From IMG/VR virus record IMGVR_UViG_2579778982_000025, positions 1 through 20,390 of that record: a stretch of DNA of 20,390 nucleotides; one strand, given 5' to 3'. Shown here piece after piece: positions 1-18,710 of the stretch. Numbering within the stretch: the stretch's first letter is position 1; the number at the start of each line of letters is the position of its first letter. The notes below the pieces were generated by a model. That model was not told the DNA's origin and did no database searches. It worked only from the letters and a program-made list of their open reading frames with translations. This DNA is from a virus. Taxonomy: Duplodnaviria; Heunggongvirae; Uroviricota; Caudoviricetes. The translations under genes and the position numbers were made by a program.

Positions 1-456
1 AGACTCAGCAAAATTGCTGATAACACAGGTAAGCTGGTTGATGAGACGAAAAAACGCATTGGCCCCGGTGATATTGTCTTTAAGAACCTGCCCCGCGCAC
101 TTGCTGTTCGTGGAGAGTGGCAGGAGCGGAAGATTGCGCAGGTCAGTAAGCCTGCCCCCGCAATTACTATCACACCCGTGGTTCCGGCTCCGCTGCCTCC
201 GGCGCTGGTCCCTGTTGTTGCGGCCAGCTCCCGCCCGGTGGCGGAGGCTATACGATCGTCAGTGGCATCAGTTCCTGCAAATTCCCGTAACCGGGAGCCT
301 GTTGCCTCCGGATTTGGCGGTGAAATTCATGTTCATCTGCATAACGTTGTTACACAGAATCCCCGCGAACTGGCGAAACTGGTCGGTGAAATGGTCAGGG
401 CAGAAATGGAACGGCGCGCCCGTGCCGGACGTGGCAGTTTTTACGATAAAGATTGA
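1..456 (+). CDS. phage tail protein, C-terminal part (probable tail tape measure protein; 5' end lies outside the window)
   Basis: Frame 1 is open from position 1 to TGA at 454-456; the ORF track lists only the Met-initiated tail 178..456. Pro/Ala-rich stretch then a charged C-terminus. Sits directly upstream of a gpU-like tail gene, as the tape measure does in P2-type tail modules. Identity is from position and composition only. Confidence 0.45.
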   Translation, partial: RLSKIADNTGKLVDETKKRIGPGDIVFKNLPRALAVRGEWQERKIAQVSKPAPAITITPVVPAPLPPALVPVVAASSRPVAEAIRSSVASVPANSRNREPVASGFGGEIHVHLHNVVTQNPRELAKLVGEMVRAEMERRARAGRGSFYDKD

Positions 457-462
457 GGAGTC

Positions 463-957
463 ATGGCCATGATGATGATCTACGGCATGTTTGTTTTTGA
501 GCTGCGCACATTGCCGCATCAGCAGTTACAGCAAAACAAAAGCTGGCGGCATGTGAAAAATGAGCGCGTAAACCGCTCAGCAAGCTGGCAGTATATCGGT
601 GCAGGTGATGATCGCATCGTGCTTTCTGGCGTGCTTTATCCTGAAATTACAGGTGGCGAAGTGTCGCTTTCGCTGCTGACCACGCAGGCATATACAGGAC
701 GCCCCTGGCCTCTGATTGATGGTGTCGGGCAGATTTACGGCATGTATGTCCTGACCGGAACGAATACGACCCGTTCCGAGTTTGATCGCTACGGTAAGGC
801 GAAAAAGATAGAATTTTCACTGACACTTGAACGCTGTGATGAGGATTTGCGGGAGCGCCTGCAATCCTCATCATTCAGCGATATGCTGTCCGGCTTCAAA
901 GATAAGGTGACATCATCTCTTAACAGCGCGGCCAGTTCAGTTAAAGGGATGTTCTGA
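463..957 (+). CDS. phage tail protein, P2 gpU-like
   Basis: 164-aa ORF, N-terminus MMMIYGMFVFELRTLPHQQLQ... resembles my recollection of the P2 gpU tail protein family. Starts 7 bp after the upstream stop. Exact start (463/469/472, consecutive ATGs) is uncertain. Confidence 0.65.
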   Translation: MAMMMIYGMFVFELRTLPHQQLQQNKSWRHVKNERVNRSASWQYIGAGDDRIVLSGVLYPEITGGEVSLSLLTTQAYTGRPWPLIDGVGQIYGMYVLTGTNTTRSEFDRYGKAKKIEFSLTLERCDEDLRERLQSSSFSDMLSGFKDKVTSSLNSAASSVKGMF

Positions 958-968
958 TTTAACACAAA

Positions 969-1005
969 AACCGCTAATGGTCAGATTAGCGGTTATTTTG
1001 TTTCC
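969..1005. terminator. bidirectional rho-independent terminator between gpU-like gene and invertase 1
   Basis: Perfect 10-bp stem aaccgctaat (969-978), loop ggtcag, attagcggtt (985-994), followed by attttgtttcc on the + strand and flanked by A/T on the other strand. Overlaps the invertase 1 stop codon. Confidence 0.6.
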
Positions 1006-1580
1006 TGACTCTTCTCAATTGTTCCGCTTGATTCTCCTGCGGGGTGGTAACGATAAATCGTCGATATACCAATGCCGTAAATTATTGCCAGTTGTTTTCT
1101 GTCGTGACCGTTTTTAATCAGCCTTGCTATTTGCTCATGCTGTTCTTTTGTCAGCTTCGGTCGACGTCCGCCTGTGCGCCCCCGTGCGCGCGCTGCCGCC
1201 AGTCCGGCCAGTGTACGTTCAACAATTAATTCACGTTCCATTTCAGCCAGGGCCCCCATCACGTGGAAGAAAAAACGCCCCATTGGAGAAGATGTATCTA
1301 TGCTGTCGGTCAGACTGCGAAAATTAATCCCTCGCTCCCGTAGTTCCCCGACGAGAGAAATCAGATGTTTCATGCTTCGCCCGAGGCGATCCAGTTTCCA
1401 GACAACCAGCGTGTCACCTTTTTGAAGGCGCTTTAAAGCGCGTTTTAATCCCGGTCGGTCTGTCTTTGTCCCGCTTAATTTATCTTCAAATATTTGTTCA
1501 CATCCTGCACAAACAAGAGCGTTTCGTTGCAGGTCTGTATTCTGGTCATTTGTTGATACCCTTACATAGCCAATCAGCAC
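993..1580 (-). CDS. serine recombinase, DNA invertase (Hin/Gin/Pin/Cin family), invertase 1
   Basis: Translation (M)LIGYVRVSTNDQNTDLQRNAL...VVWKLDRLGRS...GRFFFHVMGALAEMERELIVERT...GGRRPKL...STIYRYHPAG has the catalytic-Ser N-terminus and C-terminal HTH of Hin-family invertases. Preferred start is GTG at 1578-1580, preceded by GGGAG 7 nt upstream. The ORF track's 1598 start is a TTG with no RBS. The 5' end faces the left crossover site. Confidence 0.85.
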   Translation of the reverse strand: MLIGYVRVSTNDQNTDLQRNALVCAGCEQIFEDKLSGTKTDRPGLKRALKRLQKGDTLVVWKLDRLGRSMKHLISLVGELRERGINFRSLTDSIDTSSPMGRFFFHVMGALAEMERELIVERTLAGLAAARARGRTGGRRPKLTKEQHEQIARLIKNGHDRKQLAIIYGIGISTIYRYHPAGESSGTIEKSQETK

Positions 1581-1634
1581 ACTGAATCTCCCGTCCAAAA
1601 GCGCAAATCATGCCATGCAGGCCAGAAACGGCCA

Positions 1635-1660
1635 TTATCTAAAACCTCGGTTTACAGGAA
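1635..1660. repeat. left inversion crossover site (gix/hix-like, 12-bp half-sites around a TC core)
   Basis: ttatctaaaacc-tc-ggtttacaggaa. Its inverted partner at 4685-4710 (reverse complement ttctcaaaaacc-tc-ggtttgcaggaa) differs at 3 positions and has the same core dinucleotide. Matches the known architecture of Gin/Hin recombination sites. Confidence 0.8.
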
Positions 1661-2605
1661 ACGGTAAATCAGGCTTCTGGCGCATTACAGAAAAAACAGA
1701 ACGGCGCAGATATTCCAGGAAAAGATACCTTCACCAAAAATATTGGTGCCTGCCGCGCATATAGCGCATGGCTGAATATTGGTGGCAATAGTCAGACCTG
1801 GACAACCGCACAATTCATTTCGTGGCTGGAGAGTCAGGGGGCATTTAACCATCCTTACTGGATGTGCAAAGGCTCATGGGCTTATGCAAACAATAAGGTC
1901 ATTACAGATACAGGTTGTGGAAATATTTGTCTTGCAGGTGCTGTGGTGGAAGTTATTGGCACTCGCGGCGCAATGACCATACGCGTTACTACGCCGAGTA
2001 CATCCAGCGGTGGCGGAATTACTAACGCTCAATTCACCTATATTAATCATGGTGATGCTTATGCTCCTGGCTGGCGACGAGACTACAACACGAAAAACCA
2101 GCAGCCTGCATTTGCTTTAGGGCAAACAGGAAGCAGGGTTGCAAATGATAAAGCTGTTGGCTGGAACTGGAATAGCGGCGTTTATGATGCAGATATCAGT
2201 GGCGCATCGACATTAATCCTCCACTTTAATATGAATGCGGGGAGTTGCCCTGCTGTACAGTTCCGCGTGAATTATAAAAACGGCGGTATTTTTTATCGTT
2301 CAGCGCGTGATGGTTATGGATTTGAGGCTGACTGGTCAGAGTTTTACACCACGACCCGCAAACCCTCTGCGGGAGATGTTGGTGCATACACGCAGGCAGA
2401 ATGTAACTCAAGGTTTATTACAGGTATTCGCCTTGGCGGTCTGTCATCTGTTCAGACATGGAATGGTCCCGGCTGGTCTGACAGGTCAGGTTATGTCGTT
2501 ACGGGTTCAGTTAACGGAAACCGTGATGAATTAATTGATACAACTCAGGCAAGGCCAATTCAGTATTGCATTAATGGGACGTGGTATAACGCGGGGAGTA
2601 TTTAA
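1643..2605 (+). CDS. tail fibre protein, variable C-terminal module (no constant N-terminal region or start codon in this orientation)
   Basis: Frame is open from just after TAA (1640-1642) to TAA at 2603-2605 and begins inside the crossover site with codons NLGLQETVN. First ATG is only at 1862. C-terminus ...IQYCINGTWYNAGSI is typical of Mu S / P1 S / e14 Stf-type fibre tips. Followed by a Tfa gene 2 bp downstream. Confidence 0.7.
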   Translation, partial: NLGLQETVNQASGALQKKQNGADIPGKDTFTKNIGACRAYSAWLNIGGNSQTWTTAQFISWLESQGAFNHPYWMCKGSWAYANNKVITDTGCGNICLAGAVVEVIGTRGAMTIRVTTPSTSSGGGITNAQFTYINHGDAYAPGWRRDYNTKNQQPAFALGQTGSRVANDKAVGWNWNSGVYDADISGASTLILHFNMNAGSCPAVQFRVNYKNGGIFYRSARDGYGFEADWSEFYTTTRKPSAGDVGAYTQAECNSRFITGIRLGGLSSVQTWNGPGWSDRSGYVVTGSVNGNRDELIDTTQARPIQYCINGTWYNAGSI

Positions 2606-2607
2606 CG

Positions 2608-3141
2608 ATGATGCACTTAAAAAACATTACTGCTGGCAACCCTAAAACAAAAGAGCAATACCAGCTAACGAAACAATTTAACATCAAATGGCTTTATTCA
2701 GAGGATGGAAAAAACTGGTATGAGGAACAAAAGAATTTCCAGCCAGACACTTTGAAAATGGTCTATGACCATAACGGCGTTATTATTTGTATTGAAAAGG
2801 ATGTTTCAGCAATTAATCCGGAAGGCGCAAGCGTCGTTGAATTACCTGATATTACAGCAAATCGCCGGGCTGATATTTCGGGTAAATGGATGTTCAAAGA
2901 TGGCGTAGTGATAAAGCGAACTTATACCGAGGAGGAACAGAGGCAGCAGGCAGAGAATGAAAAGCAAAGCCTGTTGCAACTTGTCAGGGATAAAACCCAG
3001 CTATGGGACTCACAGCTACGGCTGGGTATCATTTCCGACGAGAATAAACAAAAATTAACCGAGTGGATGCTCTATGCGCAGAAGGTCGAATCCACAGACA
3101 CCTCCAGCCTGCCTGTAACGTTTCCAGAACAACCAGAATGA
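2608..3141 (+). CDS. tfa: tail fibre assembly protein (Tfa / Mu U-like chaperone)
   Basis: 177 aa, [40 protein letters not shown]...[22 protein letters not shown]; conserved Tfa-like N-terminal region. Immediately downstream of the fibre module. Confidence 0.8.
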   Translation: MMHLKNITAGNPKTKEQYQLTKQFNIKWLYSEDGKNWYEEQKNFQPDTLKMVYDHNGVIICIEKDVSAINPEGASVVELPDITANRRADISGKWMFKDGVVIKRTYTEEEQRQQAENEKQSLLQLVRDKTQLWDSQLRLGIISDENKQKLTEWMLYAQKVESTDTSSLPVTFPEQPE

Positions 3142-3144
3142 AAC

Positions 3145-3172
3145 AAGGCCCGCTATCGGGCCTTAATTTTTA
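3145..3172. terminator. bidirectional terminator at the centre of the invertible segment
   Basis: aaggcccg-ctat-cgggcctt hairpin followed by aattttta, between the two convergent tfa genes. Confidence 0.6.
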
Positions 3173-3700
3173 TTCAGGCTTTTGTGGCCATTCAGGATTT
3201 GCCGTATCCACACGGCTGACCAGAACACTATAGCGTTCCCATGACTCCAGTCGTGCGCGTTCCTCATCCGTCGCCATATTCAGCCTGACAGCGCGTTCCA
3301 GTGGCTGAATAACGTTTTCTGCTTCGGAAAGTAACGCGGCCTTTTGTGATTCGGCCTGTTGTTGTTGCTCGTCTGCCGTATAAATCCGTTTAACCACAGC
3401 TCCGTCCTTAAACATCCACTTCCCTGAATCATCGGCACGACGATTGGCTGTTATATCTGGAATCTCAACGACGCTAAAGCCTTCGGGATTAAGCGTTGAG
3501 GCATCTTTGGTTATGGCAACAATAATATTATTTTCGTCGTATACAATCTTTATGGTGTCGTCCTGAAAGTTATTTACTTCTTCATACCAGTTTTTACCGT
3601 CTTCGGACCATAACCAGATAACATCAAAATTCTTTGTTAGCTGATATTGTTCTTTCGTTTTAGGATTTCCAGACTTAATATTTTTTAAATGCTGCATCAT
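3170..3700 (-). CDS. tfa: tail fibre assembly protein, alternative copy (Tfa')
   Basis: 176 aa, [41 protein letters not shown]...; paralogous to 2608..3141, with a divergent C-terminal third as expected for alternative host-range cassettes. Confidence 0.8.
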
Positions 3701-4765
3701 TTACACCTGTGCGACGTTATACCATGTGCCATTGATGTATTTTTGTATTGGCCTGAAGATGGCTTCATCATCGCCATCTACTTCACCAATGATTCTTAAT
3801 CCGGTAATTGCGTGTCCGGCTTTTTCATAACGACCACCACGCGCCATCAATTGAACAACACGTGTGCCAAGTCGGACATCTCTCACATAGCGTGAGTCAA
3901 AATTGCCATAATTGTCGGGAATAACTTGCGCACCACAAAGCCAGTTACCGTTATTATCCATGTACGCCTGACCATCGGTGCCATTGGCTGTCCTTGAGTT
4001 ATTAATCATGTAGATGCCAAATTGCTTGTTCCCCAGTCCACCTATCATGAACTTTCGGTCGGCGTGATTCTGGCGAAGTAACGCCTGAGCGCTATCAGTG
4101 TTAACTATATTTTTCCCAAAGATAGCGTTGTTATCGCGCATCTGAATCCACATACCATTACTGCTGTTAATAGCAAAACGGTCTGAAAGTGTCTCCCCTG
4201 AAACATTAAGACCACGCCCCATCGAAACAGCGCCAGTAGCGTTATTAATCCATAATGGCCTTAATCCGTTATAAGTCCCCATGTTGTCACCGGAGTTTGT
4301 CAACATGAAGTATGTATCTGAACCATCATTACGAATAAAGAATCCGTAATTACCATAAGCAATACGTAGGCCGTTTGCTGATTTTGATATGACTTCGCCA
4401 TTTACAATGGCATTGACAAGAACATACAAAGCATCCCATTTAAGATTCATCAGGTCTTTTGTTGTGGTACTTTGTTTGCTTCTCCATTTGAAATATTCAT
4501 TGCCGTTGTCGCCTGTCTCAAACCACATGTATGAATCAGTGTCACCATCGGCATCATTTTTAAATCCAATCTTCGCCCAGTCAGTATTTCGAATCCAAGC
4601 AAGGATTGAGTCATTTTCAAAAGTAAGCCCACCGGACAAGGTATCGCCATTCTTTTGCACGGCGTTACCAACCCTGTTTACCGTTTCCTGCAAACCGAGG
4701 TTTTTGAGAATTGCCTCTGTGTCGTCTGGACGATATTTTTTTCCGCTTTTAGCAACAATCGCGGT
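3701..4765 (-). CDS. tail fibre protein, alternative variable C-terminal module, fused to a 24-codon remnant of a constant region
   Basis: Minus-strand frame is open from the stop at 4766-4768 down to 3701. Passes through the right crossover site with the same NLGLQETVN codons as the left module. Only 24 codons (TAIVAKSGKKYRPDDTEAILKNLG) lie outside the site. C-terminus ...IQKYINGTWYNVAQV. The ORF-track start at 4693 is a TTG inside the crossover site. Confidence 0.7.
   Translation of the reverse strand, partial: TAIVAKSGKKYRPDDTEAILKNLGLQETVNRVGNAVQKNGDTLSGGLTFENDSILAWIRNTDWAKIGFKNDADGDTDSYMWFETGDNGNEYFKWRSKQSTTTKDLMNLKWDALYVLVNAIVNGEVISKSANGLRIAYGNYGFFIRNDGSDTYFMLTNSGDNMGTYNGLRPLWINNATGAVSMGRGLNVSGETLSDRFAINSSNGMWIQMRDNNAIFGKNIVNTDSAQALLRQNHADRKFMIGGLGNKQFGIYMINNSRTANGTDGQAYMDNNGNWLCGAQVIPDNYGNFDSRYVRDVRLGTRVVQLMARGGRYEKAGHAITGLRIIGEVDGDDEAIFRPIQKYINGTWYNVAQV
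4685..4710. repeat. right inversion crossover site (inverted partner of 1635-1660)
   Basis: Plus strand ttcctgcaaaccgaggtttttgagaa; reverse complement aligns to the left site with 3 mismatches. Confidence 0.8.
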
Positions 4766-4774
4766 TTAGAAAGT

Positions 4775-5329
4775 ATGCAATATGGTTATGCGAGGGTGTC
4801 AACTTTTGACCAGAATTTGGAATTACAACTGGAGGCGCTCAGGAGTTCAGGATGTGACCGGATTTTTGAAGATAAAATATCCGGTGCTAAATCAAAACGA
4901 CCAGGACTTGATAAGCTACTGAAGGTGTTACGTCCGGGCGATACGGTTATTGTCTGGAAGCTGGACCGAATGGGGCGTTCTCTGATTCATCTTGTTGATT
5001 TACTTAACCATTTTTTATCAAACAACATTGAGTTTATTTCGATTACGGAAGGGATAAAAATTAGCACTTCAATTGGCCGCTTTGCCTACACGATGCTGAG
5101 TGCAGTCGCAGAGATGGAGCGGGAAAATATGATTGAAAGAACGCGTGCAGGATTGGCGGTGGCAAGGGCTAACGGCAGGATAGGAGGACGCCGCTCAAAG
5201 CTGGCACCAGAGCAATGGGAACAGATCGGAAGGCTTATTGCGAATGGTGTTTCACGTAAGCGGATAGCGATTATCTTCGATGTTACCTTATCCACGCTTT
5301 ACCGCAGGTTTCCGGCTGGGAATCATTGA
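4775..5329 (+). CDS. serine recombinase (invertase/resolvase family), invertase 2
   Basis: MQYGYARVSTFDQNLELQLEAL...VIVWKLDRMGRS...AVAEMERENMIERT...GGRRSKL...STLYRRFPAG, 184 aa. ATG at 4775; the ORF-track 4655 start is an unsupported N-terminal extension. Candidate promoter TTGCCT (4711-4716) - N17 - TATTTT abuts the right crossover site. Clearly divergent in sequence from invertase 1. Confidence 0.8.
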   Translation: MQYGYARVSTFDQNLELQLEALRSSGCDRIFEDKISGAKSKRPGLDKLLKVLRPGDTVIVWKLDRMGRSLIHLVDLLNHFLSNNIEFISITEGIKISTSIGRFAYTMLSAVAEMERENMIERTRAGLAVARANGRIGGRRSKLAPEQWEQIGRLIANGVSRKRIAIIFDVTLSTLYRRFPAGNH

Positions 5330-5460
5330 CTGGAGTTAGGCCAGTAGTATGATGCTCGCAAAACGAGATCCAATTTAGATCCTTTTACTGGTGGATTATC
5401 GTTCGATCAGTGAGAGACTTCGTGCATGACCGAAAGTGTTGTGGTAGAGTTCTCTTAAAA

Positions 5461-5473
5461 CCACGTAACGTGG
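5461..5473. promoter_or_regulatory. operator-like palindrome CCACG-TAA-CGTGG upstream of the repA control region
   Basis: Perfect 5-3-5 inverted repeat with the same CCAC(A/G)-N3-(C/T)GTGG architecture as the sites clustered in the cI/cro intergenic region; next to a TATGAT -10-like hexamer at 5475-5480. Confidence 0.4.
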
Positions 5474-5511
5474 TTATGATTGTGGGTGTCTGGTTGGAAA
5501 CTGACCAGATA

Positions 5512-5630
5512 TGGAAACAAAAAGCCCGCAGATAAATCTGCGGGCTTCTTGCGACATCCACGGAAAACCAACAACAACAATCCATGGGCGCCTCGACAAC
5601 TCCCATTATACGTTGGTTTTCCGTGGACGC
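5512..5630 (-). ncRNA. candidate CopA-like antisense RNA of the repA leader (IncFII-type copy-number control)
   Basis: Two hairpins in the repA leader. A long stem-loop has a 15-bp stem ccacggaaaaccaac (5558-5572) / gttggttttccgtgg (5612-5626) and a ~39-nt loop. On the minus strand it is followed by aagcccgcaga-ttta-tctgcgggctt (5522-5547) and then a T-run (complement of 5509-5520), a rho-independent terminator oriented for minus-strand transcription. The RNA ends are not mapped. Confidence 0.45.
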
Positions 5631-5642
5631 AAGAGCGAACAT

Positions 5643-6491
5643 ATGGATAGACCAATGCCGTCTCTACGTTCCGCTTACGTTTGTAATTTGTCGCCGGAGT
5701 TCCAGCCTCCAAAGCACCATACGCACAAGCTGCCGCTGGTGTTATCTGATGCTTTACAGCGCATTAATGGGCGTGATCTTACGTGTGAGGTTGCGTTCTA
5801 CGTTAATCAACCGTCAGAGCGGAAGCGCCGGATAAACGAGCATCGTCGTCGGGCGATTAATGCTGTGATCGCTGCGATTTTGCACCATGTAAACATCATT
5901 TCTAAGCGGGTTCTGGCTAGTGCTGAGGCGTTGGCTGATTTTTGCGGCCTGTCTACCGTATCCGAAGCTGGGAACAAGTCTATAACGCGCTGTACAAGGG
6001 CGTTGTCGCAACTGAAAGCGTTAGGGTTTATTGATTATGAACGTCGCTGGGATCGGGTGAATAAACAGTATTGGCCAGCGAAAATAGAGATTCGTGATCA
6101 ACTGCTGGAAACCGTTGGTATTACTGAACAAGCATGGAGACGTGCGGTTAGCCAGAAACTTAATTACTTCAATGCGAAGAATAGCGAACGGCTTAAAAAA
6201 GCGATAACGGAGGCTGATTATAAGCGTATTGTTATTCAGGAGCAGATGGAGAATGTATGGCGTCAGAGGAAGACGGCCAGAGAGATAAAGGCAAAACAGA
6301 AAGCAGCGGAGAGAGCTGCGCGTCTTGTTCGGGAAAAGGGAGAGGCCGAACTTCGTCATCAAATCACTAGAGAGGTTAGCCAGGAATTTGCTGATGGCAT
6401 GTATCCTGGAGCTGACCTTGCATATTTACGATCCCTCGTTGAGCAGCGTTATAACAGGTTAAGAAAGACCTGGAAATCACTCCAACATTAA
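5643..6491 (+). CDS. repA: plasmid replication initiator RepA (IncFII RepA1-like)
   Basis: ...GNKSITRCTRALSQLKALGFIDYERRWD... resembles the R100/R1 RepA1 motif (..KLSITRATRALTFLSELGLITYQ..), with an Arg/Lys-rich C-terminal half. Preceded by antisense-RNA-like hairpins and followed by a DnaA box plus AT-rich region. Start at ATG 5643 (MDRPMPSLRS...) is preferred because the ORF-track start at 5511 lies inside the antisense terminator hairpin. An IncFII-type leader peptide may exist in another frame ending at 5648-5650, but I cannot place its start. Confidence 0.75.
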   Translation: MDRPMPSLRSAYVCNLSPEFQPPKHHTHKLPLVLSDALQRINGRDLTCEVAFYVNQPSERKRRINEHRRRAINAVIAAILHHVNIISKRVLASAEALADFCGLSTVSEAGNKSITRCTRALSQLKALGFIDYERRWDRVNKQYWPAKIEIRDQLLETVGITEQAWRRAVSQKLNYFNAKNSERLKKAITEADYKRIVIQEQMENVWRQRKTAREIKAKQKAAERAARLVREKGEAELRHQITREVSQEFADGMYPGADLAYLRSLVEQRYNRLRKTWKSLQH

Positions 6492-6599
6492 CCCACCTTA
6501 ATGATGAATCCGGTTTTACCGGAGGATTATCTACGTCGCAATAAAATATCTGTTCAAAAAACAAGCTAAATTAATTTTCTCTAAACCTGAACACAGCAA

Positions 6600-6740
6600 A
6601 AATATCGCCTTCACAGGCATCGGCTAATAAAGTTATCCACAGTTTTGATATGTATATGCAAATGGTTTTTTATAATAGATGCACTAAACAAATAAATGCA
6701 AAATCACTTTCTTTTATTAAGACTTTCTTTATTTAACTTA
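6600..6740. other. putative replication origin (DnaA box plus AT-rich unwinding region)
   Basis: Perfect DnaA box TTATCCACA at 6633-6641, ~140 bp downstream of repA, followed by ~100 bp of very AT-rich sequence (6642-6740). Matches the repA-then-oriR layout of IncFII replicons. Confidence 0.5.
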
Positions 6741-7134
6741 CGCAGGCTTTGCCTGTGAATATGTTCGCCCTTGCAGCGAGCTAAAGCTCGCGCCGGTTCG
6801 AGTCGCTACGCTCAAATATACCTCCTCCGGCACTTGCCGGAGGCATGGAGCAGCCTGATCATCCTTTTCGAAACGGCGCGTTTCGAACTATACAAAATCA
6901 ATTTATATAAGGCCGAAATGAGGCCTACGGCCGGGCTTTGCAGGAGGAAGGAGCGAGCCTTATCGATAAACGTCGATAAATACGCACACAGTAGCCATCA
7001 GAACGCGATAAAACGTAAGAAACATCATTTCCTATTAGACATAGAAAACTTGTCTTATACGCAATGTAGTAAATTTCTATTGCCACATAGGAAAAGATTT
7101 CCTACCATCGTAGATATAATAAATGGAGATGGTT

Positions 7135-7422
7135 ATGGATAAAGATACTGTTTTAAAAATGTTGAATCCGGCTTGTTTAAAAAAAGCGGATGAATGGGAA
7201 TCTCCTACATGTGGAGAAGTTCGGGCAGTCATTGGCCTGACCGGAATGAGCGGCTCGCAGTTGGCCAAAAAACTAGGCTTAAAAGATAGTCGCAATGTTC
7301 GCAACTGGCAGATGTTAAAGGAGTCCACATCCAGATCCAGCATTCCGTATGCAGCCTGGGCGCTGCTGTGTTACTTCGCTGGGTTAGGGTTAATCTTCAT
7401 TGATAACAAAACAGATGTTTGA
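7135..7422 (+). CDS. hypothetical protein with putative HTH motif and hydrophobic C-terminus
   Basis: ATG 7135 preceded by GGAG (7125-7128). 95 aa, MDKDTVLKMLNPACLKKADEWESPTCGEVRAVIGLTGMSGSQLAKKLGL... ending in IPYAAWALLCYFAGLGLIFI. No family recognised. Confidence 0.5.
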   Translation: MDKDTVLKMLNPACLKKADEWESPTCGEVRAVIGLTGMSGSQLAKKLGLKDSRNVRNWQMLKESTSRSSIPYAAWALLCYFAGLGLIFIDNKTDV

Positions 7423-7445
7423 AACATGCAAATATGAGGTTTGTT

Positions 7446-7709
7446 ATGGAACTTGTACGCAAAACACGCAAAGAGTTCTTGGACCTGTATCGCATGGGAG
7501 CTTTCACTTGTGTTGTGGCTACCCAGGACGAAGTGACAAAAAGCTGGCGGCTTTTTGCTCTCAATAAAAAAGGGATTGCCGTTTTCATTGAAAAAGCCCG
7601 TGGTGGTATCCGCGAATGGGCGGGATTGAATTATGTGGCTGATTTTTGCGCAGCTATGGGGATTCGTCGCTGGGAAGTCCATATGCCAGGAGTAAAGTCA
7701 CAAAAATAG
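7446..7709 (+). CDS. hypothetical protein
   Basis: ATG 7446 preceded by GAGG with 6-nt spacing, 24 bp after the upstream gene, so likely one operon. 87 aa, MELVRKTRKEFLDLYRMGAFTCVVATQDEVTKSWRLFALNKKG.... ORF-track start 7419 is probably too long. Confidence 0.45.
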   Translation: MELVRKTRKEFLDLYRMGAFTCVVATQDEVTKSWRLFALNKKGIAVFIEKARGGIREWAGLNYVADFCAAMGIRRWEVHMPGVKSQK

Positions 7710-7891
7710 GGCTTTCGCGTCGAAAATGAGGCGAAACTGAAAACGAGATTTCATTAACAAATAAGCAACATAAAAAACGGTGGAAAACGCCCAGGAAAAC
7801 ATGATCTTTTGAGCGGATTTTTTAGATCCGACAATGAACGGTGATCCGGTGGTGCCGATAACGTCCATTATGTTAAATAGCCCCGTTTTTC

Positions 7892-7945
7892 TTGAAATTA
7901 TAACCTACGGGTTATATAGTTAGTGATATAAACTACAGGTTATAG
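7892..7945 (+). promoter_or_regulatory. sigma70-type promoter with two operator palindromes for the toxin-antitoxin operon
   Basis: TTGAAA (7892-7897) - 17 bp - TATAGT (7915-7920). Inverted repeats tataacc-tacg-ggttata (about 7899-7916) and atataaactacaggttatag (7926-7945) overlap the -10 and start region. RBS AGGA at 7944-7947. Confidence 0.55.
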
Positions 7946-7953
7946 GATTGAGC

Positions 7954-8301
7954 ATGTGGACGGTACTTTTTAGCCAGCGATTTGACGACTGGCTAAATGA
8001 GCAAGAAGACGCTCTTCAGGAAAAGGTTTTGGCTGATTTGAAAAAGCTACAGGTTTACGGACCTGAGTTACCCAGGCCATATGCCGATACCGTAAAAGGT
8101 TCTCGGTACAAAAATATGAAAGAGCTTCGCGTTCAGTTTTCTGGCCGTCCGATAAGAGCCTTTTATGCGTTCGATCCGATTCGCCGGGCCATCGTTCTTT
8201 GTGCAGGAGACAAAAGTAACGATAAACGGTTTTATGAAAAACTGGTGCGTATAGCTGAGGATGAGTTTGCAGCACATCTGAACACACTGGAGAGCAAGTA
8301 A
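7954..8301 (+). CDS. higB: type II toxin, RelE/ParE superfamily (HigB-like, phage Gp49-type addiction-module killer)
   Basis: MWTVLFSQRFDDWLNEQEDALQEKVLADLKKLQVYGPELPRPYADTVKGSRYKNMKELRVQFSGRPIRAFYAFDPIRRAIVLCAGDKSNDKRFYEKL.... Toxin-first order. Stop TAA overlaps the ATG of the downstream HTH gene by 1 nt. The ORF-track start 7948 is a TTG; ATG 7954 has the RBS. Confidence 0.7.
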   Translation: MWTVLFSQRFDDWLNEQEDALQEKVLADLKKLQVYGPELPRPYADTVKGSRYKNMKELRVQFSGRPIRAFYAFDPIRRAIVLCAGDKSNDKRFYEKLVRIAEDEFAAHLNTLESK

Positions 8302-8600
8302 TGAGAACATTAGATGAGGTGATTGCCAGCCGTTCACCTGAAAGCCAGGCGCGAATTAAAGAAATGGCAGATGAGATGATTCTTGAGGTCGGCTTGCAGA
8401 TGATGCGTGAAGAACTCCAGTTATCACAAAAACAGGTTGCTGAGGCGATGGGTATAAGCCAGCCAGCAGTAACAAAGCTGGAGCAGCGCGGAAATGATTT
8501 AAAGCTGGCGACGTTAAAACGTTACGTTGAAGCTATGGGAGGCAAATTAAGCCTGGATGTTGAGCTTCCCACAGGAAAGCGAGTAGCGTTCCATGTCTAA
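8301..8600 (+). CDS. higA: type II antitoxin, XRE-family HTH (HigA-like)
   Basis: 99 aa with central HTH (LSQKQVAEAMGISQPAVTKLEQ). Translationally coupled to the upstream toxin gene. Confidence 0.7.
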   Translation: MRTLDEVIASRSPESQARIKEMADEMILEVGLQMMREELQLSQKQVAEAMGISQPAVTKLEQRGNDLKLATLKRYVEAMGGKLSLDVELPTGKRVAFHV

Positions 8601-8612
8601 CATAATGTAAGT

Positions 8613-8640
8613 GTAAGGCCCCATTGGGGCCTTACTTATT
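8613..8640. terminator. bidirectional terminator
   Basis: gtaaggcccc-attg-gggccttac hairpin followed by ttatttactt, between convergent genes. Confidence 0.6.
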
Positions 8641-8924
8641 TACTTACCATTTTTGCGGTTTTTTTCGGACTTCATAAGCTGGCTAACGCGCCCTGGTGTG
8701 ATATTTAACATGCGGCTTACTTCAGCTTGTGATCCTACTTCCTCTACTAGCGATGCAACATAGCGAGATTTTCCTGAGGAGGTTAATCCATTATATGTTG
8801 CTCGTGCGACTTTTCCCTGAGCTTCTCTCATATCAACTAATGCCTGAGCAACTTGCTCAAAACCTTTAATTGTTACTTCTGTTAATGCTCGAATAGCATC
8901 AATTTCAGATTTTGGTTTAGCCAT
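8640..8924 (-). CDS. putative DNA-binding regulator (C-terminal HTH)
   Basis: MAKPKSEIDAIRALTEVTIKGFEQ...VGSQAEVSRMLNITPGRVSQLMK. ATG at 8924 with GAGG 6 nt upstream. ORF-track start 8936 is a TTG. Confidence 0.5.
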   Translation of the reverse strand: MAKPKSEIDAIRALTEVTIKGFEQVAQALVDMREAQGKVARATYNGLTSSGKSRYVASLVEEVGSQAEVSRMLNITPGRVSQLMKSEKNRKNGK

Positions 8925-8972
8925 TTGGTACCTCAAATTGTTTAAAATGTGTTAATTACAAAATTCAGCCGA

Positions 8973-8997
8973 TACCATGTTCAATGGTATACCATTG
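8973..8997. promoter_or_regulatory. palindromic operator candidate (CAATGGTATACCATTG)
   Basis: Perfect 16-bp palindrome at 8982-8997, overlapping a second inverted repeat TACCAT-N5-ATGGTA (8973-8989), in the divergent intergenic region between 8640..8924 and 9192..9572. Confidence 0.4.
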
Positions 8998-9085
8998 CTG
9001 AAATGTCTTTTTCAAGACCTTGCCAATAAGCTAAACAAAAATGTTTAATCATTCGCCTAAAAAAACACCAGTCACTATTATTTAT

Positions 9086-9186
9086 ATAATTATATATTTA
9101 TATAAAAAGTGCTTTACAGGTGGGAAAAAATTTCCTAAGGTTATACCCGAAACCGAGCGATACCCGCCCTGGTTAAACCGGAGATA
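9086..9186 (+). promoter_or_regulatory. repeated promoter / 5'UTR cassette, copy 1
   Basis: Near-identical to 19153..19252. Contains TTTACA - 17 bp - TAAGGT (TATGGT in copy 2) promoter-like hexamers, a ~55-nt leader and a GGAG RBS, preceded by AT-rich palindromes. Confidence 0.5.
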
Positions 9187-9191
9187 ACCCG

Positions 9192-9572
9192 ATGAGCATG
9201 ATTAAAATCCGCAAAAACGCTTTCCTTAAAATTCAAACTATCCTGGCTGGTTCTGTTGGCGTGATTTGCCGTTCTTCTTCAAGCCGCATCGATGACGGCT
9301 ACGATGATGAGTACCGTGTGTCCTCGTGCGATGAGGCTTTAACCTGGCTGAAGGAGAATCAGGAACGTGCCCAGGTATATCTGGAAACAGAGAACGGCAA
9401 TCAGATGCTGCGTATTAGCGGTCGTTATGGATTTGAAACTACATTCATGGCCTATTTTAATCAGGCTTACTTTGACAAGGAGTTGGCCTGGTACACTGAT
9501 CGCATGAGCAAAAGCGAGCCAGCCCCGATTACACCGCCGAACAATAAACCATTTTTATTCCTCGTTAAGTAA
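9192..9572 (+). CDS. hypothetical protein
   Basis: 126-aa ORF driven by the repeated promoter cassette. Acidic, no recognisable motif. Confidence 0.5.
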   Translation: MSMIKIRKNAFLKIQTILAGSVGVICRSSSSRIDDGYDDEYRVSSCDEALTWLKENQERAQVYLETENGNQMLRISGRYGFETTFMAYFNQAYFDKELAWYTDRMSKSEPAPITPPNNKPFLFLVK

Positions 9573-9580
9573 ACACAATA

Positions 9581-9607
9581 CGCAAAGTGTCATTTTGACA
9601 CTTTGCG
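9581..9607. promoter_or_regulatory. 27-bp perfect palindrome (hairpin or operator)
   Basis: cgcaaagtgtca-ttt-tgacactttgcg, 9 nt after the 9192..9572 stop and 29 nt before the XRE-family gene. No U-tract follows, so it is an operator or RNA stability element rather than a classic terminator. Confidence 0.4.
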
Positions 9608-9635
9608 AGTGTTAATATTGTGCGAGGAGGATGCT

Positions 9636-9908
9636 ATGACGGGTTATGAATTGAAATTATGGCGTCGTGGGATGAACTGGACGCAGGAGCGAGCCGCCGA
9701 AGAATTTGGGATATCGTTGGCTACATATAAGCGATATGAGAAGGGGGAGCCGCCGAGGGTCATTGAGATGGCCATTCGCGTTCTGTCGTTTGACGATATG
9801 GTGAAGGATCTTTCACACCTTGATAAAGACGCGATTCTGTTAAGGCTGCAAACCCTTGTATGGGAAAAGGTTAAAGTGTCGTCAGAATTGGAACAAGGGA
9901 TCAAATGA
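9636..9908 (+). CDS. XRE-family HTH transcriptional regulator
   Basis: MTGYELKLWRRGMNWTQERAAEEFGISLATYKRYEKGE.... RBS GAGGAGG (9624-9630). The ORF-track start 9603 is upstream of the RBS. Confidence 0.7.
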   Translation: MTGYELKLWRRGMNWTQERAAEEFGISLATYKRYEKGEPPRVIEMAIRVLSFDDMVKDLSHLDKDAILLRLQTLVWEKVKVSSELEQGIK

Positions 9909-9957
9909 TCCTTTACGGATCGTTTTATGGTGGTGTAATGTAAGCGCCAGAAAGACA

Positions 9958-9985
9958 AAAACCGCCTTGCCGGGCGGTTTTCAGT
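9958..9985 (+). terminator. rho-independent terminator
   Basis: aaaaccgcc-ttgccg-ggcggtttt hairpin, then tcag. Confidence 0.5.
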
Positions 9986-10543
9986 CTGAAATTTAAATCT
10001 TGCTTGGTAGGCTGGATTTAAAAAGACACCTCTTGATTGGGGCGGCTTTCTTGCGTCTAAAGATAATCAAATCTTTTTGCGCCTGCAACCCCTTTTTTAC
10101 TGGTGCCTGTTTCAGACTCACGCTCGCGTCGTTGTCTTTGCCACTTCGTTGGGTTCGGTGTTTTTGGGCGGAGTGGCGCGCGGGTATGCGTACAAGGGGA
10201 AAGTGTGCTGACGCAAGCCAGGAACAGCGATCTAAACTAAGTCGAGTCTGAGAAAGGCAGGAGTGCGACAACTCGCCTGTGCTCTATGAGCAGAAGAAGG
10301 TATATCAGACGACCAATGGCATGATTGTGGGCCACAGGGCGCACACGGCGGCGAAGCATTGGAAACGATGTGGAGCTATCTGGTGGCATGAGTTCCGGTA
10401 CTCGATCTCGAGCTTTTTTTGATGCTTTTGAGAAGGGGCCGGAACTCCGGTAAAGGGCACCCTGTATGGGGGGAGGGGGGGTTGTGTCTAAAGGAAGATC
10501 CAATACGATATTGCTTTACCCTTATATCTAAAAGGAGATTTCT

Positions 10544-11179
10544 ATGGGGATGCTGGTGGCGTTTATTATTAGCCTGATTTTGTGTTTCTTCGTAGTTCGT
10601 GGTGCATATCGGAAACAATGTGGCCCATCTTCTGGTAGTAAGTTCAAAGCTGTTTTAGTGAGTGGGTTTCTTGGGATTGCTACTTTTGTTGTTGTTAATA
10701 CTCTTGCTGCTGTGGCCTTGATTCCAGAAGACTCCGGCACTACGGCTACTACCGGAGCTGCTTTCGATGGCGTGACCGTAGATAAGTTTAAGCAGCTATA
10801 TAATGATGACCTTGAAGGTATCGCTACATCAGGAAAATCCACCTCCACTATAAGAATTAAGTCAGTTAAACAAGGTAACAACACCGTTGAATTTGCCATC
10901 AATTCATCTGTTAACGGTCGAGCTAGAGTTGATAAGGATGGGAAGATTTCAGAGTTATTATGGCGAGTATCTAAGCCTAGCTCTGATTCCTTGCTTTCTA
11001 TGGCCGTAGCTGTTGAAGTCTTGGATGCATCAAGTGATAGAGACACAGTGATCGCGCAGTTAGAGCAGATTGTTAAATCTGATACGCAGAAAGCTGAGTT
11101 TAAGACTAAGAGAGGCGAGTATTACGTTTCTCGTGACAAATCAGGGCACGTGTCGCTACTGATTACACCGAAATATTAA
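10544..11179 (+). CDS. membrane protein with two predicted N-terminal transmembrane helices, function unknown
   Basis: Strong RBS AAGGAG 7 nt upstream. Hydrophobic segments MLVAFIISLILCFFVV and VLVSGFLGIATFVVVNTLAAVALI, then a Ser/Thr-rich soluble domain. Confidence 0.65.
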   Translation: MGMLVAFIISLILCFFVVRGAYRKQCGPSSGSKFKAVLVSGFLGIATFVVVNTLAAVALIPEDSGTTATTGAAFDGVTVDKFKQLYNDDLEGIATSGKSTSTIRIKSVKQGNNTVEFAINSSVNGRARVDKDGKISELLWRVSKPSSDSLLSMAVAVEVLDASSDRDTVIAQLEQIVKSDTQKAEFKTKRGEYYVSRDKSGHVSLLITPKY

Positions 11180-11188
11180 GAATTGAAG

Positions 11189-11216
11189 AAGCGCCCAAAT
11201 CGGGCGCTTTGTTTTA
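11189..11216. terminator. bidirectional terminator
   Basis: aagcgccc-aaatc-gggcgctt followed by tgtttt, between convergent genes. Confidence 0.6.
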
Positions 11217-12356
11217 TGGTTTTGCACCTGCGGCCAGTTTATCCGCCGATATCTTTATCAGTTCCTGTAGTGTCCTGGCTGGTAGGTTTGCATCCAGTAC
11301 GCTGAGTATGCTGCTGTGATCTGCCTGGTCGACTACTTTGCCTGTCGGTGGTAGTAGCTTGAGCTGAGGATTCAGGTTTTCGTCAAAGCTGATCAGTGCT
11401 CTGGCGTTTCTGAGCAGATCAAGAAGTAAGGCTGATATCACATTTTCCTGAGTCATTGCTGGCAGATTTAGCGCCGCTTTGGTTTTCCCTGTTGCCTTGT
11501 CAAACTCCTTGATTAGTTCCTTCCTGTAGTTCGGTTCCGTTAATAGCCGATTATGCTCTGTTGCCGCGCGGATAATCGTTTTTTCCTGGTACAGTCGTTT
11601 AGCCAGATCACGCTCGTACTGTGTTTTTAACACGCTGCTGATAGCGTTAAAGGCTTCAATGTAGGCCAGCTTGATATCTTTCACGCTTGGACCGTCGATG
11701 CTCTCCATGAGTAAGGTAAATCCGTCTTTTGTCATGCGATAGATTGTTATTTCGCGGTCGCTTCCTTCCAGCGGTCGTTGCTCTTTAAAGAAGTGACGCG
11801 CCGCAGCCGTGCGAGGAATGCGTAGCGCATCGATGGCCATAACGATGGAATTGTTTGTGGTGCTGAATGCCTGGGCAACATCGGCTGAGGTTGTGAGTGG
11901 CTCGTTGTTGCACACTTTAATGTAAAACATCGGTTTGGCGTTGAGCGTATCGACAACCTCACGAGCATTGTTTGGCGAGACGGTAACGGTCGCGGCCGTT
12001 TGCGCGTTCTGGTTGAAGTAGCAGTCTTCCAGCCGTTCGAACACATCCCACGCTTGGTTAGTTTCAAGCATTTTGGCGTGACGTGCAGCCCCGCGTTCGG
12101 TCCAGAGGATTAGTTTTCTAACGTTATTCGCGATGGTTTGAAAATCTCTTAAAGAGATTTTCAAACTTTGGAGATCTGTACCTTTTACAACTATGAAATG
12201 TTTTCCTTCTGTAAACCGGGACTTATTACGGTGGTGATTTCTGTGAAGACATTCGACGCTACAGCCATATAGTTTGGCAAGCAGCTCCGTGGTGATAACG
12301 GGGATCTGGTTATGCAGGATAGGCTGTAGGGTGTTAACGGTCGGAAGCGTTTTCAT
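11214..12356 (-). CDS. phage antirepressor-like protein (ORF6N/Rha-type N-terminal DNA-binding domains, long C-terminal region)
   Basis: 380 aa. N-terminal ...ITTELLAKLYGCSVECLHRNHHRNKSRFTEGKHFIVVKG... resembles ORF6N-type antirepressor domains; a second similar segment ...TTSADVAQAFSTTNNSIVMAIDAL follows. Family assignment is from memory of motifs only. Confidence 0.55.
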   Translation of the reverse strand: MKTLPTVNTLQPILHNQIPVITTELLAKLYGCSVECLHRNHHRNKSRFTEGKHFIVVKGTDLQSLKISLRDFQTIANNVRKLILWTERGAARHAKMLETNQAWDVFERLEDCYFNQNAQTAATVTVSPNNAREVVDTLNAKPMFYIKVCNNEPLTTSADVAQAFSTTNNSIVMAIDALRIPRTAAARHFFKEQRPLEGSDREITIYRMTKDGFTLLMESIDGPSVKDIKLAYIEAFNAISSVLKTQYERDLAKRLYQEKTIIRAATEHNRLLTEPNYRKELIKEFDKATGKTKAALNLPAMTQENVISALLLDLLRNARALISFDENLNPQLKLLPPTGKVVDQADHSSILSVLDANLPARTLQELIKISADKLAAGAKP

Positions 12357-12640
12357 TTTGCACCTCCCATAACTACTTTGGTTACGAGGGAGATTTTTGC
12401 GTCAGAAACAGCGTTATCGTTGCTGGCGATGCGCATAGCTTCGCGCTCGATGATTTCAGCCAGGCGGAATTTATCGGCGTATGAGGCTTTCTTGAGAAGG
12501 ATCTTTACGAGGTTGACGTAATAGTCATGGGGTAAGTTTGTCATGATGATAGTTCCAGTTTTGATATTGGAATAATCACCACCGCTGACGCCAATCAGTG
12601 AGGTGGTGAGACGTACAGGGTTGGCGTAACCGGTCATCAT
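12353..12640 (-). CDS. hypothetical protein
   Basis: Stop overlaps the start of the antirepressor-like gene in an ATGA arrangement, suggesting translational coupling. Start ambiguous between 12640 and an internal ATG (MTNLPHD...). Confidence 0.4.
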   Translation of the reverse strand: MMTGYANPVRLTTSLIGVSGGDYSNIKTGTIIMTNLPHDYYVNLVKILLKKASYADKFRLAEIIEREAMRIASNDNAVSDAKISLVTKVVMGGAK

Positions 12641-12844
12641 GATACCCGGCGAGCCTTACGGCTCCCCCGCACGCCCCACCATAATTCGGGTGTAGCTGTG
12701 CTTTACGCATAAAAAAACCGCTAACGCGGTATGCGCCATGATGATTATCGGGACGCCAATCCCGACCGTAGATTTTGCTACGGCTCGGAAAGTGTCCACC
12801 AATGGCGCATTTATGTCAATACAGCGGGATTTTAACAGACTAAA

Positions 12845-12857
12845 CCACATAGTGTGG
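12845..12857. promoter_or_regulatory. operator-like palindrome CCACA-TAG-TGTGG
   Basis: Same motif class as the cI/cro operators; in the divergent intergenic region 12641-12994. Confidence 0.4.
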
Positions 12858-12883
12858 GTTTGAATGCGGGGCTTTTAATTTTC

Positions 12884-12912
12884 TTGATATGCTAAAAACG
12901 GGAATGTATAGT
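12884..12912 (+). promoter_or_regulatory. sigma70-type promoter for 12995..13534
   Basis: TTGATA (12884-12889) - 17 bp - TATAGT (12907-12912). Confidence 0.5.
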
Positions 12913-12994
12913 TCCTGTAAGGAATCAATTAGTCCTGAGTTATGGTGTTTTGTTAAAGTCGGGAACAAGAAAAAATTCAGTATGGGGATAAAAA

Positions 12995-13534
12995 ATGATT
13001 GAACTGTCAAAAAACTCATGTTTTTCAACCATTCACCTAATGATCATAAAAGAACTTAGGCTAGAAAGAGGTGTGCATCAAGGAGTACTGGCTCAAGCTG
13101 CTGGAAAAACACCAAACGCATGGACAAAGATAGAGAACGGGCAGTCTGTATTAACAGTTGACGCCCTTTTTGGTGCTTTCACAGCCCTTAATATTACTCC
13201 AGTGAATTTCATGTCATTGGTAGAAAATCTTATTCCCGAATTTAACCGTTATGGTTACTTCTTTTTCCCTGGAACAATCAGTCAGGACGAGGATAACCTT
13301 TTACCTCTGATGCTGCGTTACTTTAATAGCAAGGGGTTTGAAGCATTGAGAAATAGGCCATTCGAAAGAGTTAGCATTAGCTCAATGGGATTCTCATTTG
13401 GGGGCGGCATCCCTGTTACTCCAACTGCTGTAATGTATTGTTGCGATGAAGCATATAGAAATTGGGTCGATAACGGTGCTGATGTGGATAATCGAGATTA
13501 TCTGGAGTCATCAACAGGTCGTGGACTGTTTTAA
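12995..13534 (+). CDS. HTH (XRE-like) domain protein with C-terminal domain of unknown function
   Basis: 179 aa. N-terminal LMIIKELRLERGVHQGVLAQAAGKTPNAWTKIENGQSV is HTH-like. RBS GGGGA upstream of ATG 12995. Confidence 0.55.
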   Translation: MIELSKNSCFSTIHLMIIKELRLERGVHQGVLAQAAGKTPNAWTKIENGQSVLTVDALFGAFTALNITPVNFMSLVENLIPEFNRYGYFFFPGTISQDEDNLLPLMLRYFNSKGFEALRNRPFERVSISSMGFSFGGGIPVTPTAVMYCCDEAYRNWVDNGADVDNRDYLESSTGRGLF

Positions 13535-13553
13535 TGAGTGAAGAAACAAAAAA

Positions 13554-13580
13554 ACCGTCCTATTGAGGACGGTCCTTTCG
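13554..13580 (+). terminator. weak rho-independent terminator
   Basis: accgtcc-tattga-ggacggt followed by cctttcg, preceded by an A-run. Confidence 0.35.
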
Positions 13581-13726
13581 TGCTGATCGGATTCGCGGTC
13601 CTTTCAGCATTACGTTGTTGTATAAACAACCACGCAAGCACAAGCAGCAAATTGATTTTACTCAAAAGGTAATAATAGTCCACTATTATACATCAAAAAA
13701 TTGTGGTTCTTGTTGTGTCAGCAAAC

Positions 13727-13739
13727 TCACAGATTGTGG
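13727..13739. promoter_or_regulatory. operator-like palindrome TCACA-GAT-TGTGG
   Basis: Same motif class; flanking aaactcac matches the site at 16685. Confidence 0.35.
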
Positions 13740-13971
13740 GTAGGTTACTGATTTTGTGAAAATAAACTGTTTTTTTCGTTTAATTTCTTTCCTATTACTA
13801 ATCTTAAAATAATCGTAAAATACCTGTGGACCTTCCCGCCGATTCGCACCCGGGCACCGACTTTAGGGGAGGATTTCCTGTTGCCGTACATGCAAGCACA
13901 AGCAGCCGTGCTTGCTCTCGCGTTGTTTTCGTCGGTGGGGATGTCGTGAAACGGCCTGTAAGGGCCACACA

Positions 13972-14094
13972 ATGAAAAAATACTACATGTGTATTTTTAT
14001 CGTTGTTACTGGAGCTTTGTTTACGCCACATGGGGAGGGTTGGAAGATTACTGATAACGCTCTGAATGTGACGATAAACATTAGCAGCAAGTAG
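13972..14094 (+). CDS. small hydrophobic peptide (40 aa), candidate small membrane protein or type I toxin
   Basis: MKKYYMCIFIVVTGALFTPHGEGWKITDNALNVTINISSK. RBS AGGG 7 nt upstream. Strong terminator immediately downstream. Confidence 0.4.
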   Translation: MKKYYMCIFIVVTGALFTPHGEGWKITDNALNVTINISSK

Positions 14095-14099
14095 CGATT

Positions 14100-14123
14100 A
14101 GGCCCCTTCGGGGGCCTTTTTTA
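14100..14123 (+). terminator. rho-independent terminator
   Basis: aggcccc-ttcg-ggggcct followed by tttttta. Confidence 0.7.
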
Positions 14124-14132
14124 TGGTTGAAT

Positions 14133-14282
14133 TTAAACGCTTGAGCGCATTAAGCCTTTCAGAACTGCTTCACGTACCCATTCTGGCCTGGTGGATAGCA
14201 GGGCAAATAAGCGACCAGCTTGCAGCCGTTTGAGGTCGGTTAGACGAGTTTTCAGTAACCGTGTATATTGTTGTTCGGACAT
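14133..14282 (-). CDS. small hypothetical protein (49 aa)
   Basis: MSEQQYTRLLKTRLTDLKRLQAGRLFALL...; ATG 14282 preceded by AAGGGGA. Co-oriented with and downstream of the partition genes. Confidence 0.35.
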   Translation of the reverse strand: MSEQQYTRLLKTRLTDLKRLQAGRLFALLSTRPEWVREAVLKGLMRSSV

Positions 14283-14344
14283 AACAAATTCCCCTTGTTG
14301 TGTCGCGACGGCCAACAGTTGGCGCTGGAGGCCGTCACCTTCTC

Positions 14345-14593
14345 TTACTTCTGGTTGTATTGAGCCTTGAGTAACTCAAAAGATTTTGTCAGCACTTCTT
14401 TCAATGACATATCCATTGAGCTGGCGAATGTTTTGTACTCACGTTTAAATTCAGGGTCGACGTTAAACGCCATTTGTGCCCCACCTGATTTGGTTCTGGT
14501 TGGCGTTTCAGTCGGGTCGAAAACCTGCGGTTGTTCGATCGATGGCGGTACGCCTTTGCTGTTCTTCTTTGGTGGTTTTGATGGTGCGGCCAT
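14345..14593 (-). CDS. ParG-like ribbon-helix-helix partition / centromere-binding protein
   Basis: 82 aa with a basic, flexible N-terminus and C-terminal ...AQMAFNVDPEFKREYKTFASSMDMSLKEVLTKSFELLKAQY, resembling RHH ParG-type partners of small ParA ATPases. RBS AGAGGGG. Immediately downstream of parA. Confidence 0.55.
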   Translation of the reverse strand: MAAPSKPPKKNSKGVPPSIEQPQVFDPTETPTRTKSGGAQMAFNVDPEFKREYKTFASSMDMSLKEVLTKSFELLKAQYNQK

Positions 14594-14636
14594 GTGTATC
14601 CCCTCTTATATAAATCTATAAAACTATAATTATATA

Positions 14637-15290: not shown

Positions 15291-15305
15291 TTGTCGAGAC
15301 TCCAT

Positions 15306-15420: not shown

Positions 15421-15440
15421 GGGCGTTAGCCCGCTTGCAG

Positions 15441-15815: not shown

Positions 15816-15851
15816 GCGTAGCCTCTTTTATACTTTTACATGTTGTCAAAA

Positions 15852-18707: not shown

Positions 18708-18710
18708 ACA

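Follow-up and report, generated by a model that had tools for sequence, protein, structure and literature searches.

Convergent gpU and DNA invertase genes as a probably ordinary junction of P88-type prophages in the P2 family

The window, the whole stretch of 20,390 nucleotides analysed in this study, is identical to the entire draft contig JICA01000105.1 of assembly GCA_000691105.1, and it opens inside the gene of the tail tape-measure protein gpT (Table 1). This gene runs to a stop codon at 454-456; in 200-bp windows its end matches that of the tape-measure CDS in the prophage of strain N63 at 100% identity, and the matching stretch of phage P88 is annotated as tail tape measure protein. 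The gpU gene lies directly downstream, starting at 463 as an open reading frame or at 469 as annotated in RefSeq relatives, and its product matched the Pfam family Phage_P2_GpU with an E-value of 1.5e-38 and 131.6 bits against a cut-off of 27.5. Homologues of gpU are labelled 'tail protein' in P88 and GpU in PhiR44_2. A Gin-type invertase gene (invertase 1) follows on the opposite strand. The open reading frame 993-1598 matched Resolvase (E 1.5e-50) and HTH_7 (E 1.8e-13) in Pfam, and RefSeq relatives annotate the gene with a GTG start at 1580. The two genes converge, their stop codons separated by 35 bp. The initial annotation had described a gpU-like gene meeting a convergent invertase at one shared terminator hairpin, with the invertase stop codon in its stem, and both parts of this description were borne out.

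The hairpin at the junction has a 10-bp stem and a 6-nt loop, and its arms are extended by weaker A/T pairing to 961-978 and 985-1002; the limits 969-1005 given in the initial annotation take in the T-tract. Its folding energy is -16.1 and -15.7 kcal/mol on the two strands (z = -3.4 and -3.7 against dinucleotide shuffles), and sequence-based terminator scoring recognised it on both strands. It most likely halts both transcripts. The TAA stop codon of invertase 1 (993-995, minus strand) has two of its three bases within the stem, and the last codons of invertase 1 provide a T-run of the hairpin. An Rfam scan of 957-1642 returned no match.

Table 1. Genes and sequence features of the junction, the invertible segment and the adjoining plasmid backbone, in window coordinates
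Feature	Position	Strand	Basis or content
gpT tape-measure gene, 3' end	1..456	+	contig starts within gene
gpU tail gene, last in the FI-U late operon	463..957	+	Pfam PF06995 Phage_P2_GpU
Predicted bidirectional intrinsic terminator hairpin	961..1002		stem 969-978/985-994, loop 979-984, T-runs on both strands
Left boundary of variable cargo slot (P2 Z/fun hotspot equivalent)	994..995		junction alignment
Gin-type serine DNA invertase (invertase 1)	993..1580	-	Pfam Resolvase and HTH_7
Invertase-proximal crossover site, gix-like: ATTATCTAAAACCTCGGTTTACAGGA	1634..1659		inverted-repeat pair 1630-1695/4650-4715
Invertible tail-fibre segment	1660..4685		two fibre C-terminal parts, two chaperones
Fibre C-terminal part	1862..2605	+	segment content
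Assembly chaperone	2608..3141	+	segment content
Alternative chaperone	3170..3700	-	segment content
Alternative fibre C-terminal part	3701..4660	-	segment content
Second crossover site, inverted	4686..4711		outer half of plasmid (invertase 2) type
Invertase 2, of the ~48-kb RepA phage-plasmid	4775..5329	+	Pfam Resolvase and HTH_7
IncFII-type repA, phage-plasmid backbone	5511..6491	+	Pfam IncFII_repA, E 1.3e-43

Invertase 1 has the composition of the Din family, with a Resolvase-type catalytic domain, an N-terminal serine and a C-terminal helix-turn-helix domain. Compared with the Mu Gin structure 4m6f it gave an E-value of 3e-101, with residues 1-120 almost identical, and the YVRVSTNDQ motif with the catalytic serine is kept in the alignment with Gin. 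At the DNA level, gin of Mu, D108, SfMu and Mu-like Yersinia phages shares 91-93% identity with window positions 1192-1640; this stretch comprises the catalytic domain of invertase 1, the upstream region and the crossover site. Matches to Mu-like phages are restricted to it: the 5' two-thirds of the gene have 91-93% DNA identity to their Mu gin counterpart, the 5' part being where Din-family genes have the Fis-dependent recombinational enhancer, and the HTH-coding 3' third (993-1191) is not Mu-like in DNA. The invertase 1 gene is therefore itself a patchwork.

The two crossover sites, each of about 26 bp, flank the tail-fibre segment in opposite orientation and have the core AAAACCTCGGTTT in common. 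A site identical to the invertase-proximal one also adjoins the invertase in P88 and at locus L019. Pfam matches within the segment were gp37_C, Caudo_TAP (twice) and Gp34_trimer. In the N63 prophage, the segment lies in the opposite orientation beside a left flank 99.8% identical to that of the window, and the far end of the N63 segment matches window positions 1701-2200 at 99-100% identity; the two arrangements are related as inversion at the two crossover sites would predict. Sequencing has demonstrated inversion in EPEC O127:H6 prophages of the P2-like type (PMC4272514), and an O127:H6 genome has the U-invertase junction at 88.8% identity. The segment as a whole is a patchwork, the best matches of 200-bp identity windows alternating between N63, P88, P1-like and Mu-like elements and 48-kb plasmids. 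With these windows, no single switch point between prophage and plasmid could be called inside the segment without the true parents.

The adjacency of U and the invertase is widespread among relatives. With a 431-bp query (window 760-1190), the junction was fully covered in 631 of the 5,426 complete E. coli genomes, roughly one in nine, with identities of 88-100%; in strain N63 the identity is 100%. In phage P88 (genus Xuanwuvirus of the Peduoviridae), window positions 1-1640 are covered at 97.7% identity, with tape measure, tail protein and DNA invertase in this order. About the same stretch was found at about 96% identity in Xuanwuvirus P884B11, in Escherichia phages 503458 and 520873 and in Citrobacter phage Shae_phiSM, and Escherichia phage 500465-2 covers positions 1-1579 at 97%, so the arrangement occurs in annotated, viable phages as well as in chromosomes. 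The 631 genomes are unlikely to hold clonal copies of one event, because their junctions spread over 88-100% identity and their insertion contexts differ. From these comparisons, the U-invertase adjacency is the conserved order of the P88 phage group, an ordinary feature that was already known.

The relation of this order to that of P2 becomes clear from the position of gpD. In the P2 record the genes run V W J I H G, fun(Z), FI FII E E' T U D ogr, and only fun(Z) is off the main strand; the stop codon of U overlaps the start of D, and one F operon is annotated from FI through D. The initial annotation was right that D follows U in P2-type tail modules: when 50,697 phage records were searched with a U+D fusion protein, 382 of the 510 matching records had U and D adjacent on one strand, including Fels-2, SopEPhi and phages of Yersinia, Burkholderia, Ralstonia and Pseudomonas. 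The two genes lay apart in the Xuanwuvirus records and in one set of Klebsiella phages. The canonical order FI FII E E' T U D is likewise not found in the window, where U is followed by the opposite-strand invertase, and no gpD was found after U in the window or among the Pfam-scanned ORFs, a subset of the window ORFs. In the map of P88, however, V W J I H, the invertible segment and the invertase lie on the plus strand, U T E' E FII FI on the minus strand and D on the plus strand again. The N63 prophage is organised in the same way; its D is full-length and, like ogr, diverges from FI. The initial annotation had proposed looking for gpD elsewhere in the element, and in these relatives it is found past FI on the opposite strand, about 5 kb further left than the start of the contig. 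gpD is thus present in P88-type phages rather than missing, and its expected position falls outside the contig.

Judged from these maps, the P88 lineage differs from P2 by an inversion of the FI-FII-E-E'-T-U operon together with its promoter, such that U ends against the 3' end of the fibre operon. A synthetic query, in which the last 300 nt of N63 U were joined to the first 300 nt of N63 D in P2 order, found a P88-type U adjacent to D in none of the 1,413 E. coli genomes holding either. The inverted layout is compatible with viability, since P88 can be induced and is lytic on many E. coli strains, and phiSM shows spontaneous activity (PMC5285337, PMC6456863). It extends to Klebsiella phage ST16-OXA48phi5.4 (Reipivirus), where the FI-U block is inverted and D and ogr lie on the other strand as in the P88 type; unlike the P88 type, this phage has a DUF262 protein and a hypothetical protein between the fibre genes and U, and no invertase cassette. 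In related Klebsiella phage records, D has about 70% protein identity and U about 66% DNA identity. The FI-U inversion is therefore a lineage trait of at least two genera, Xuanwuvirus and Reipivirus. Our literature search found no paper explicitly discussing it in P88-like phages.

The inverted FI-U block is shared by PhiR44_2, Chuche, O157:H7 EC4115 and the Klebsiella Reipivirus despite differing cargo. After U, the cargo is an invertase cassette in P88, N63 and ETEC4090, a glycosyltransferase in Chuche, an acetyltransferase in the O157:H7 EC4115 remnant and a DUF262 protein in Reipivirus; PhiR44_2 has no cargo, and the fibre chaperone gene G follows directly. In the alignment, PhiR44_2 and Chuche are homologous to the window through the whole hairpin to 994 and divergent from 995, and the O157 remnant diverges earlier, at about 963, with a different hairpin. 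As the hairpin is kept in relatives without an invertase (PhiR44_2 and Chuche), it is probably U's own terminator, reused by the invertase. The Z/fun site is a cargo hotspot of P2-like phages, and DNA invertases are reported to be frequent there (bioRxiv 10.1101/2024.10.15.618418). On this alignment, a mosaic boundary is present at 994/995, but only as the standard cargo boundary of the P2 family.

Considering these results together, we conclude that the junction is very probably an ordinary 3'-to-3' meeting of two transcription units in a P88-type (Xuanwuvirus) prophage of the P2 family, and a plausible model can be proposed. In this lineage the FI-FII-E-E'-T-U late operon is inverted with its promoter and reads towards the end of the fibre operon V-W-J-I-H, with D and ogr remaining on the other strand beyond FI and divergent from it. 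The fibre operon ends in a Mu-G-like invertible cassette with the Gin-type invertase gene as its last gene, so that U and the invertase converge. The invertase cassette would have been inserted flush against the U terminator, which would explain why the invertase stop codon overlaps the stem. The Ogr-dependent FI-U transcript would stop at the hairpin. A promoter at the crossover site, as in Mu gin, would drive leftward transcription of invertase 1, which would end at the same hairpin, and D and ogr would be driven from the 157-bp divergent region between D and FI. For termination and for the promoters of the invertase and of D, the model draws on the established picture of P2 late transcription and of Mu Gin.

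In the N63 prophage, a TGTTGTC motif in this 157-bp region (L003 14466-14622) precedes the FI start by about 100 bp, a distance similar to that between the annotated activator site and FI in P2. In the P2 record the divergent P and O promoters are annotated as sharing one activator site, and by analogy the TGTTGTC motif may be one late-activator site serving both directions. The strict Ogr pattern TGT-N12-ACA, applied to N63 and P88, misses even the annotated late-promoter sites of P2. In several P88-like prophages gpD is shortened, to 801 bp in ETEC4090 (L001 9115-9968), and in O157:H7 EC4115 it is a 267-bp fragment (L004 6203-6469) in a remnant with IS elements around it. Many chromosomal P88-like copies may be decaying prophages, given these truncations and the IS elements flanking the EC4115 copy.

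The initial annotation had read the junction as non-canonical and as a second mosaic joint in the window. Taken as a recent replacement of gpD by an invertase module after U, specific to this element, such a joint is highly improbable. It would agree with the order of P2 and of most matching phage records, and the module boundary at 994/995 is real. However, the identical adjacency recurs in the 631 complete genomes and in several isolated phages, those phages keep D on the far side of FI, and D never adjoins the P88-type U in the 1,413 genomes mentioned above. The mosaic-joint reading fails because relatives show the U-invertase adjacency as their conserved order; what survives of it is the module boundary, which is not peculiar to the element. 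We give just as little credence to the possibility that the 5.6-kb FI-U block as a whole is invertible, flipped by the Gin-type invertase at secondary crossover sites. The invertase gene does lie exactly at one end of the block, but no gix-like sequence with up to 9 mismatches in 26 was present at the block ends of N63 or P88, and the only two true sites found flank the fibre segment. The P2 orientation was absent from all 1,413 genomes, and the inversion is also present in relatives without any invertase. The lack of a gix-like site at the block ends means that we see no sign in the sequences of the invertase having made the FI-U inversion or of its still flipping the block. That the junction is an assembly artefact has a negligible probability, for although the window is a whole short draft contig whose other joint, from the segment to invertase 2, occurs in no finished record, positions 1-1673 run unbroken through the finished N63 chromosome at 99.8% identity with the junction itself unchanged.

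With the junction thus very probably ordinary, its likeness to known systems can be stated. P88 and the window agree in the order tape measure, U, convergent invertase, crossover site and invertible fibre segment, and in the hairpin and its overlap with the stop codon. They differ beyond the segment, which is followed by the constant part of H and baseplate genes in P88 and by invertase 2 and plasmid repA in the window. The high identity across T-U-invertase (97.7% over 1,640 bp) with identical gene order is that of Xuanwuvirus, whereas H, the baseplate genes and D/ogr in P88 order are absent from the contig, as is FI, and the P88-like part of the window is the left 1.6-4.7 kb only. T and U of P2 are homologous to those of the window, and the Z/fun hotspot of P2 corresponds to the cargo slot after the fibre genes. 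In P2, however, FI-U lies on the main strand, the stop codon of U overlaps D and there is no invertase, whereas U in the P88 type has its own terminator, D is separate and, in the window, an invertase follows U. The Gin/G segment system of Mu resembles the window in its 26-bp inverted sites, two fibre C-termini and two chaperones; the HTH third of its invertase differs in DNA from that of the window, and Mu is transposable, whereas the host of the window's cassette belongs to the P2 family.

As a discovery, the junction carries little weight, and its value lies rather in calibrating readings that take P2 as a template. In the Xuanwuvirus/Reipivirus clade, a U not followed by D is no sign of mosaicism, because the FI-U operon is inverted and D/ogr are separate. 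The spot just after the terminator of U is the cargo hotspot of the family.

The contig as a whole joins a P88-type prophage end to a plasmid-like part. Positions 1-1673 are the N63-like prophage (99.8%), and from about 3870 to 20390 the contig is about 98% identical, in aligned stretches, to plasmids of about 48 kb; plasmid matches extend from 1631/1635 to 20390 at 96-97%. These plasmids carry an IncFII-type repA, ParA, a P1-like C4 antisense RNA with an antirepressor and contractile tail genes of their own. Invertase 2 adjoins repA in many of them, and the phage-plasmid backbone continues to the end of the window at 20390. A 3-kb invertible segment is common to the prophage and the plasmids. 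In the contig, this segment is bracketed by the two invertase genes, with the fibre constant region on neither side; to its right the contig is not P88-like, and invertase 2 and repA stand in place of the constant part of H.

Window 1-7000 was found at 80% coverage in none of the 5,426 complete E. coli genomes, and window 1-5400, at the same coverage, in none of 72,556 plasmids. The exact 319-aa fibre fragment (3701-4660) occurred in no other contig of the gene-position index, and therefore no independent second example of the hybrid was available. The two-invertase arrangement is absent from every finished record searched, so the right-hand joint is most likely an assembler path through a repeat shared by the prophage and a plasmid of one strain. 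It is unlikely, though less so than the alternatives considered for the U-invertase junction, that the contig is a real cointegrate, formed by fusion of a ~48-kb RepA phage-plasmid and a chromosomal P88-type prophage via the shared invertible segments. Recombination would then have taken place inside the shared fibre segments or at their crossover sites, and one junction would be left with two invertase genes and without the fibre constant region. If this were true, invertible fibre cassettes would be portable fusion points between phage-plasmids and prophages. The status of the right-hand joint leaves the U-invertase junction unaffected, because that junction is intact in finished genomes. 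The contig also carries a warning, namely that invertible fibre cassettes common to several replicons can mislead short-read assemblers.

An analogous two-invertase hybrid, consisting of a P1-type cin, the segment, invertase 2 and repA, was observed in GCA_018023475.1 (L009 5693-11717). It lies on a 137-kb draft contig, about the size of a P1-like plasmid plus a 48-kb plasmid, and this type of hybrid was absent from finished plasmids. An apparent chromosomal copy of the plasmid (OU349839.1, L013 9308) has an N run beside a crossover-site core sequence, and this locus is unreliable for integration for that reason.

Two groups of RNA matches lie on the plasmid backbone. C4 antisense RNA (81 bits) and isrK (71 bits) matched at 12599-12784 on the minus strand in Rfam, directly upstream of an ORF6N/Rha antirepressor gene at 11214-12356 (minus strand), and together these elements make up an immunity cassette of the P1/P7 immI type. 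The ryfA sRNA family was matched over its full length at 13826-14122 on the plus strand, with 144.7 bits against a gathering score of 80, between a helix-turn-helix gene and parA.
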